Assembly (NCBI GenBank): GCA_964373695.1
Contig: CAYJVT010000005.1
Coordinates: 21,628-57,909 of the forward strand
Source of the DNA: an uncultured archaeon
GTDB taxonomy: Archaea; Aenigmatarchaeota; Aenigmatarchaeia; GW2011-AR5
DNA length: 36,282 nucleotides
Reading direction: 5' to 3'
Below are positions 83 to 154 of this stretch, piece by piece (position 1 is the first letter of the stretch; every line of letters begins with the position of its first letter). A program made the position numbers and the translations under genes. The notes beneath the pieces are model-generated. The model was not told where the DNA came from. It did not search any database and saw only the letters and a program-made list of their open reading frames with translations.

Positions 83-154
83 AAATGAACAATGAAACAA
101 GTTTCATTTCAATTTTCGAGACGGAAGTATATGAGGTGTTTCAAAAATGAACAA
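83..154 (+). repeat. Start-codon-associated insert, copy 1 (hairpin AATGAAAC-AA-GTTTCATT + mini-hairpin + AGGTGTTT SD), flanked by direct repeat aaatgaacaa
   Basis: aaatgaacaa at 83-92 and 145-154; 91-115 is identical over 25 bp to 22478-22502. Confidence 0.8.

Follow-up and report, generated by a model that had tools for sequence, protein, structure and literature searches.

REP/BIME sequences and the PATEs derived from IS200/IS605 elements do not duplicate their target and have no tie to start codons. Mycobacterial interspersed repetitive units (MIRUs) were reportedly described by Supply et al. in 1997. Two sources portray MIRUs as repeats that insert at start codons and are translationally coupled (PMC12548453, PMC3184786), and one of them records both empty and filled sites, tetranucleotide direct repeats and overlapping open reading frames (PMC3184786). 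The literature that we searched held no description of an archaeal MIRU counterpart, or of one that carries its own Shine-Dalgarno (SD) sequence. Here we describe a candidate for such a counterpart in a 36,282-nt stretch of DNA from an uncultured groundwater archaeon, referred to throughout as the window, and in related genomes. We think it probable that each of the two sites on which the analysis centers, one near the left end of the window (site 1) and one before the unrelated gene rps19, holds a single small, non-coding and non-autonomous insertion cassette that landed on a start codon and duplicated its ATG.

An initial annotation of this DNA had reported 25 identical base pairs at the two sites, and AATGAAACAAGTTTCATTTCAATTT does occur exactly at 91-115 and 22478-22502. 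With up to three mismatches allowed, two matches were found, compared with 0 in 100 dinucleotide shuffles. A genome-wide search returned only these two copies in the 1.02-Mb, 60-contig assembly of the window genome (G000). In public collections the only counterpart was the orthologous rps19 copy of G001, three metagenome matches that lack the SD module being attributed to chance, and a near-match in G004 was set aside as an unrelated hairpin between genes. The annotation had also held that the left flank of each site repeats the first codons of the gene that follows. This proved correct, with ATG AAC at 85-90 recurring at 147-152, where the site 1 gene starts, and ATG GCA at 22472-22477 recurring at 22534-22539, where rps19 starts. 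The direct repeats are longer than was first claimed (Table 1) and gene-specific, AAATGAACAA bracketing the site 1 element and AATGGCAAA the rps19 element. Anchored on the 25-mer, the two inserts are equal in length and align without gaps, and 62 nt separate the old ATG from the new one. The older SD that had been noticed before the left ATG of site 1 is likewise present, and it corresponds to the native SD of the ortholog in two genomes of the same genus, G001 and G002, of which G001 was deposited as a groundwater Candidatus Aenigmatarchaeota MAG. The gene upstream of site 1 (window 1-61) ends in a glutamine-rich tail with a 20-nt direct repeat, CAGCAGCAGTATGTACAACC, in a region that cannot be aligned to G001.

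Table 1. Coordinates of the features at the two focal sites and at the related inserts of the window.
Feature	Positions in window	Strand	Supporting observation
Site 1, native (old) SD AAGGTGA	73..79	+	counterparts immediately before this gene: GATAAGGTGA (G002) and GGTAGGTGA (G001)
Site 1, left target copy AAATGAACAA, old ATG 85-87	83..92	+	single copy in the empty G001 and G002 sites
Site 1, hairpin ATGAAAC-AA-GTTTCAT, left end of the element, inside the 25-mer	92..107	+	
Site 1, conserved tail, new SD GAGGTG (133-138) and spacer TTTCAAAA (139-146)	108..146	+	
Site 1, right target copy AAATGAACAA, functional ATG 147-149	145..154	+	
Site 1, frame of 21 codons opened by the old ATG; its stop, TGA 148-150, and the new ATG overlap as ATGA	85..150	+	frame analysis
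Site 1, host gene, 63-aa protein with lipoprotein-type signal (MNKKAMILVMLVLASMVFISGC...)	147..338	+	N-terminus conserved in G001 and G002
rps19 site, left target copy AATGGCAAA, old ATG 22472-22474, one base after the rpl2 stop TAG 22468-22470	22471..22479	+	
rps19 site, hairpin ATGAAAC-AA-GTTTCAT, inside the 25-mer	22479..22494	+	
rps19 site, tail, new SD AAGGTG (22520-22525) and spacer TTTTAGAA	22495..22533	+	
rps19 site, right target copy AATGGCAAA, rps19 ATG 22534-22536	22533..22541	+	
rps19 site, 19-codon frame from the old ATG; TAG stop 2 nt before the rps19 ATG	22472..22531	+	frame analysis
Long-form insert between rpl22 and rps3, AAATGA at both ends, three or four hairpins, same tail/SD/spacer module	23612..23731	+	fold z = -5.0
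Insert upstream of rps17, hairpin GGGGAATT-GAAA-ATTCTCC and SD module	25158..25224	+	

The view that the flanking repeats are a true duplication made at insertion is supported by the empty state of site 1 in G001 and G002 and by filled and empty pairs elsewhere. In both of these genomes the orthologous locus is syntenic and element-free (in G001 it lies on the same contig as the ribosomal operon), and the native SD and spacer are followed directly by ATGAACAAGAAAGCG / ATGAACAAG, the junctions reading ...GGTAGGTGAAATAT-ATGAACAAGAAAGCG in G001 and ...GATAAGGTGATTTGA-ATGAACAAGAAAGCG in G002. Because site 1 is empty in its congeners, the left flank in the window genome, GATAAAGGTGATGTAA-ATGAACA, represents the ancestral SD and start; the element follows this ancestral start, and the gene resumes at the second ATGAACA. 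At rpl40e the site is filled in G002, where the copy runs from ATGGCAA through the hairpin to ...GGTGTTTCAAAA and then ATGGCAAAA, and it is empty in the window genome. An exosome-like gene carries two tandem 62-nt units in G026, and its site is empty in G224 and G039. ATG-containing duplications of 6-10 nt occur at at least six independent sites (site 1, rps19, rpl40e, contig C7 of the window genome, G047 and G236). Comparison of these sequences demonstrates both the insertion and the duplication.

The rps19 insert is common to G001, where it has the same AATGGCAAA repeat, a hairpin identical at 22 of 23 positions and 54 extra nucleotides holding two more hairpins. In six more distant relatives the rpl2-rps19 junction is compact, with a spacing of 2-13 nt. 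We judge the rps19 insert to be older than the one at site 1. The same junction in relatives (L006, L009-L011, L013, L015, L017, L019 and G002:C70 (L005)) is an insertion hot spot in the family. Several relatives have unrelated small ORFs of 146-573 nt there, a SAM-methyltransferase-like ORF is found in G002 and G017, and in G005 (L010) a 22-nt duplication of the rps19 SD and start, GGTGCTTAACATGGCCAAAAAA, surrounds an inserted, unrelated ORF. Elsewhere in the window, a 103-aa ORF without obvious ribosomal-protein identity lies between rpl23 and rpl2 (21470-21781), and an ORF like a response-regulator receiver domain (...KIMIVEDEE...) lies inside the spc ribosomal operon before rps8 (27707-28117).

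The 25-nt identity is no sign of recent copying between the two focal sites, since site 1 is a mosaic. All 22 positions of its left part agree with the rps19 copy, whereas the right part agrees with that copy at 22 of 33 positions and with the G002 and G003 copies at 28 of 33. Between the rps19 orthologs of G000 and G001 the hairpin has been kept at the 22 of 23 positions already given, and the right part has drifted to 25 of 33. Taken with the mosaic, this difference suggests that the hairpin is probably constrained, for the element or for the host, rather than merely young, and that members of the family probably exchange parts.

Judged by its sequence, the element belongs to a family in the Aenigmatarchaeota (DPANN) whose units have one layout: a variable hairpin (usually ATG...CAT), a conserved tail, a GAGGTG SD sequence and an A-rich spacer. 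The insert's right half recurs before other genes as ...TTTCRAAACRGAAG..TATGAGGTGTTTCAAAA-ATG. A profile search of the window genome from which the ATG had been left out returned seven significant copies (site 1, rps19, rps3, rps17 and genes on C7, C21 and C24), every one of them sense and directly before an ORF of 63-294 aa; this search of G000 found neither an antisense copy nor a longer element with the same ends. Across the 371 genomes of the phylum that were searched, the module is concentrated in the window's own family, where 11 of 43 other genomes contain it, and a reversed-pattern control of the module search gave 0 matches. One genome, G003, holds 28 copies when the ATG is not required. 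In all 47 pooled copies, all of them sense, a start codon (ATG, rarely GTG or TTG) lies 3-10 nt after GGTGTTT, compared with a chance rate of 0.21 per copy, which falls to 0.058 when the start must also open an ORF of 60 codons or more. The GAGGTG motif is complementary to the anti-SD of the 16S 3' end, GGATCACCTCCT. Membership in a family and strict placement before start codons are demonstrated by these matches.

The left hairpin differs in sequence between subfamilies, and it nearly always begins on ATG and ends in CAT. Similarity among site 1, rps19 and the rpl40e copy of G002 starts at the hairpin foot and ends at the A-run before the ATG. The length of the duplication varies across the family (4, 6-10, 17-18 or 20-22 nt), yet 15 of 45 units keep an ATG-to-ATG period of 62-63 nt. 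The rule that the first two codons are copied holds in the focal subfamily and in several others, but it is not universal, and the refuting case that the initial annotation had named, further copies whose left flank fails to match the start of the gene, occurs in part in the wider family. In G003, subfamily C always begins ATGAGATGC and has only ATG(A) or TGA in common with the gene, with two copies standing before TTG or GTG starts, and the repeat of subfamily A consists of SD, spacer and ATGA (17-18 nt). The SD and spacer variants that flank a G003 unit vary in concert. In G026 the repeat spans 20-22 nt of native coding sequence. Tandem units, two or three in number, were found in G003 (L039, L080, L084) and G026 (L052), and none at the two focal sites. 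In L039, L069, L080 and L084 of G003 and L052 of G026 we observed arrays of 62-63-nt units with differing hairpins, each unit with its own SD and ATG; these arrays look superficially repeat-spacer-like, but their hairpin parts recur at many loci. A CRISPR origin was rejected on account of this recurrence of the variable hairpin parts, the CRISPR repeat of the window genome (C11, period about 74) being unrelated. Rfam 15 returned only tRNAs for the window and, for five element-rich loci at E <= 1, nothing but a chance PYLIS match. Four tRNA matches in the window (12878-13083, 15546-15666 and 35150-35259), at 88-121 nt longer than standard, suggest that these tRNAs contain introns.

Long forms of the insert, found before rps3 in G000 and G001 and before rps19 in G001, include additional hairpin modules that belong to a hairpin-array repeat family of very high abundance. 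The rps3 long form has a 39-codon frame open from the overlap with the rpl22 stop to the rps3 ATG, with an ATGA overlap at its end. Translated from an in-frame ATG at 23602, rps3 would appear as a spurious ORF of 265 aa running through the insert (23602-23727), and relatives and the SD module place the real rps3 start at 23728. Apart from hairpin 1 the short forms have no strong global structure, to judge by folding z-scores of -1.3 and -0.1. When the long forms are folded to a consensus, the tail that follows hairpin 1 pairs with the old AAUG, so that the old start may be partly masked there. The hairpin-array family itself has dozens of copies in the window genome, on both strands and many at contig ends, with the pattern CAAAGnnC..GnnCTTTG-GCATCT-CAAAAGAGC..GCTCTTTTG-CAGAC.. 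and compensatory stem changes (for example C22:84-147, C16:10985-11038, C3:24568-24630 and window 23644-23695); the ends of C6, C44 and C52 have an identical repeat of more than 100 nt in common. Upstream of rps17, the orthologous inserts have the hairpin GGGGAATT/ATTCTCC in G000 versus AAATGGAAT/ATTCCATTT in G001 (L104:6520-6640), and the second rps17 codons differ. As far as these two genomes are compared at rps17, the left part is the portion that turns over quickly, and the SD module stays.

We propose that a cassette of about 53-55 nt landed on a start codon and duplicated the ATG and the four to six bases after it, so that 7-10 bp of target were doubled. Its parts, from the left, are the hairpin ATGAAAC-AA-GTTTCAT, a tail (TTTCRARACRGAAG..TATG), the SD GAGGTG and an 8-nt A-rich spacer, and the right-hand copy of the start thereby gains a fresh and well-spaced ribosome-binding site, which would leave the gene translatable. 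Since the new start lies 8 nt behind a strong SD, ordinary initiation is expected at the right-hand ATG, and the N-terminus of the site 1 host protein is conserved from this ATG in G001 and G002. The old SD and old ATG now open a throw-away frame of 19-21 codons through the cassette that ends at or just before the new start. Ribosomes from the old site or from rpl2 are probably handed on by termination-reinitiation, and insertion would then be nearly neutral for expression. The geometry of the sites fits such a relay, which we regard as plausible. Of the 31 short units, 28 have an old-ATG frame that comes within 20 nt of the new ATG before it stops, at -15, -5 or +1; because another frame is open in 22 of 31, this count lends the relay modest support. 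Some G003 copies have early stops in the old-ATG frame.

Movement of the cassette would be the work of a trans-acting enzyme with a staggered cut. The discrete ends of three independent insertions (site 1, rps19 and rpl40e of G002), the similar 6-10-nt duplications at six sites and the strict orientation favor an enzyme-mediated, targeted event, whereas the variable length of the flanking repeats cannot be explained by a single enzyme of fixed stagger. Enzyme searches covered incomplete assemblies (76-91% complete for G000, G001, G002 and G003), and in these none of Y1 transposase, DDE_Tnp_1 and tyrosine recombinase tracks the copy number of the element. An intact Y1 transposase of the IS200/IS605 type is encoded in the window genome (C52:1390-1746, a 138-aa open frame, 98.9 bits), and Y1_Tnp is absent from G001, G002 and G003 as assembled; this distribution, together with the gene-specific duplications, led us to reject REP/RAYT elements or an IS200/IS605 PATE. 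Hairpin repeats flank this TnpA gene, which shares its small contig with rpl40e; a fragment of such a gene is present at C17:1544-1720. Neither Y1 transposase nor reverse transcriptase was detected in the incomplete assembly of G003, which has the 28 copies. A target-primed retroposon was rejected as well, RVT_1 reverse transcriptases being absent from all four of these assemblies. The terminal inverted repeats are weak, 7 bp (TGAAACA/TGTTTCA) confined to the focal subfamily and not common to other subfamilies, and no DDE_Tnp_1 was found in the incomplete G000 assembly, so that a DDE-derived MITE was also rejected. It is possible, and we put it forward tentatively, that no dedicated transposase is involved and that the units spread by host replication and repair, through template switching or ectopic gene conversion between SD-ATG contexts, with selection keeping the events that duplicate a start or junction. 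Several observations agree with such host copying followed by selection: the extent of the duplication (4, 7-9, 17-18 or 20-22 nt) and its placement around the ATG differ, yet the ATG-to-ATG distance remains 62-63 nt in those 15 of 45 units; the SD and spacer variants on the two sides of a G003 unit change together; in the G026 hairpin the gene itself supplies the 5' arm and the 3' arm alone was added, as in snap-back copying; and at the G005 rpl2-rps19 junction unrelated ORF cargo comes with a 22-nt duplication of SD and start. The mosaic nature of site 1 and the lack of any enzyme correlated with copy number point the same way. The discrete ends and the recurrent 6-10-nt duplications tell against host repair, as does the sense placement at starts of 47 of 47 copies, young and near-identical ones included, since selection alone would spare neutral intergenic or antisense copies. 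A further idea, which we find rather doubtful, is a guide-like, start-codon-specific archaeal insertion that homes to start sites by nucleic-acid pairing, burying the old start codon as well. A start region (ATG...) has its complement in the 3' arm (...CAT) of the left hairpin, and in the fresh insertions of G026 and G236 this hairpin consists of the target's own duplicated start and a newly made complement.

Another explanation is that the inserts are leader peptides or uORF regulators in which the peptide (...FETEVYEVFQK) is under selection, as in attenuators or arrest peptides. The old-ATG frames are open, the C-termini at site 1, at the C7 copy of G000 and at rps3 are similar, and three of the five differences in the tail shared by site 1 and rpl40e of G002 are synonymous in the uORF frame. 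Nevertheless, we consider this reading unlikely, because G003 copies stop early or use other frames and the frame of 63-nt units is different, the hairpin region cannot be aligned as peptide, loop variation falls on single codons as expected of a hairpin, and the rps19 copies of G000 and G001 differ mostly non-synonymously; a conserved leader peptide was rejected as unsupported across subfamilies. It is very unlikely that the 25-mer is immobile and serves to regulate the two genes jointly, be it as a palindromic operator or as a motif of the promoter or 5' UTR. Congeners have empty sites, the flanking duplications are gene-specific, the hairpin sequence varies among family members and the rps19 copy sits inside an operon, 1 nt after the rpl2 stop, all of which weighs more heavily with us than the perfect palindrome ATGAAAC-AA-GTTTCAT and its preservation at 22 of 23 positions between G000 and G001 while adjacent sequence drifted to 25 of 33. 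An archaeal promoter was rejected, no TATA-like box being present at about -26 from a plausible transcript start. Finally, the insert might be skipped, either as a BHB intron that is removed from the mRNA or by ribosomes that bypass it from the old matched codons to the new, the kind of bypassing known from T4 gene 60 and from mitochondrial byps. The sites do recall the gene 60 cassette (10.1101/2022.08.31.505936): take-off and landing codons match across some 55 nt, a hairpin closely follows the take-off codon, and the landing codon is preceded by an SD-like sequence. We find skipping barely credible all the same: a canonical arrangement of SD, spacer and ATG gives ordinary initiation, and with only two codons before the gap a nascent-peptide signal is impossible. 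BHB introns were rejected since the folds lack helix-bulge-helix-bulge geometry and inspection revealed no exon-exon pairing.

If an insertion cassette on start codons is the right description, selfish DNA can persist in a streamlined archaeal genome of roughly 1 Mb with almost no intergenic space. Because the element regenerates the start codon and brings its own ribosome-binding site, even ribosomal-protein operons would tolerate its insertion. The inserts would be natural constructs for the study of SD-dependent initiation and termination-reinitiation in DPANN archaea. They also have a practical side, in that they create false upstream start codons, such as the one at 23602 before rps3, mislead gene callers and break assemblies. 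The clues to how insertion happens are the ATG...CAT hairpins and a duplication of varying length.

Among described systems, putative mobile promoters and promoter reuse (PMC3575422) resemble the present loci in placing near-identical upstream sequence before unrelated genes, but here it would be a translation-initiation cassette of SD and spacer that moves, and it lands on the start codon itself. The MobA-associated bypass cassette of T4 gene 60 (10.1101/2022.08.31.505936) is likewise mobile and about 50 nt long, with codons that match at its two ends, a stem-loop on its 5' side and an SD inside it; the insert here, though, occupies the beginning of its gene, a place where nothing beyond ordinary initiation is needed. 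With REP/BIME (RAYT Y1 HUH) and the IS200/IS605-derived PATEs the element shares hairpin-defined ends and arrays with other hairpin modules, which are abundant in the window genome; it differs from them in duplicating its target and sitting on start codons, and TnpA is absent from the genomes with most copies. Prokaryotic MITEs (Correia/NEMIS, RUP, Nezha; PMC3049150, PMC3184786) are similarly small, non-coding, structured and multi-copy, with target-site duplication and lineage-specific filled and empty sites, and they affect expression of the neighboring gene, an effect that is here a prediction. The present family, in contrast, has no convincing terminal inverted repeats, no autonomous partner found in the window genome and a variable duplication length, and its copies are strictly sense and always on a start codon.

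By analogy, the closest known kind is the mycobacterial MIRU. As MIRUs are described (PMC12548453, PMC3184786), both are short (40-100 bp) dispersed repeats, oriented with the gene and found at start codons or intercistronic junctions. Both have empty and filled sites with short direct repeats, and tandem amplification is possible in both. At site 1 and rps3 a small ORF ends over the downstream start, in the -4 (ATGA) arrangement of MIRUs. The likeness is one of description, a sequence relationship not being expected between elements from different domains of life and of different base composition. There are also clear differences, since the family described here is archaeal and AT-rich and carries its own strong SD and spacer and an ATG...CAT left hairpin. 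Where a MIRU has a tetranucleotide repeat, the duplication here measures 7-10 nt, or as much as 22 in other members of the family. The small ORF is not retained, or coupled at -4, in every case, the stop at rps19 lying 2 nt upstream. Placing the family beside MIRUs would extend this type of element from bacteria to Archaea, and on this comparison we regard it as an archaeal variant of the MIRU that brings its own SD.
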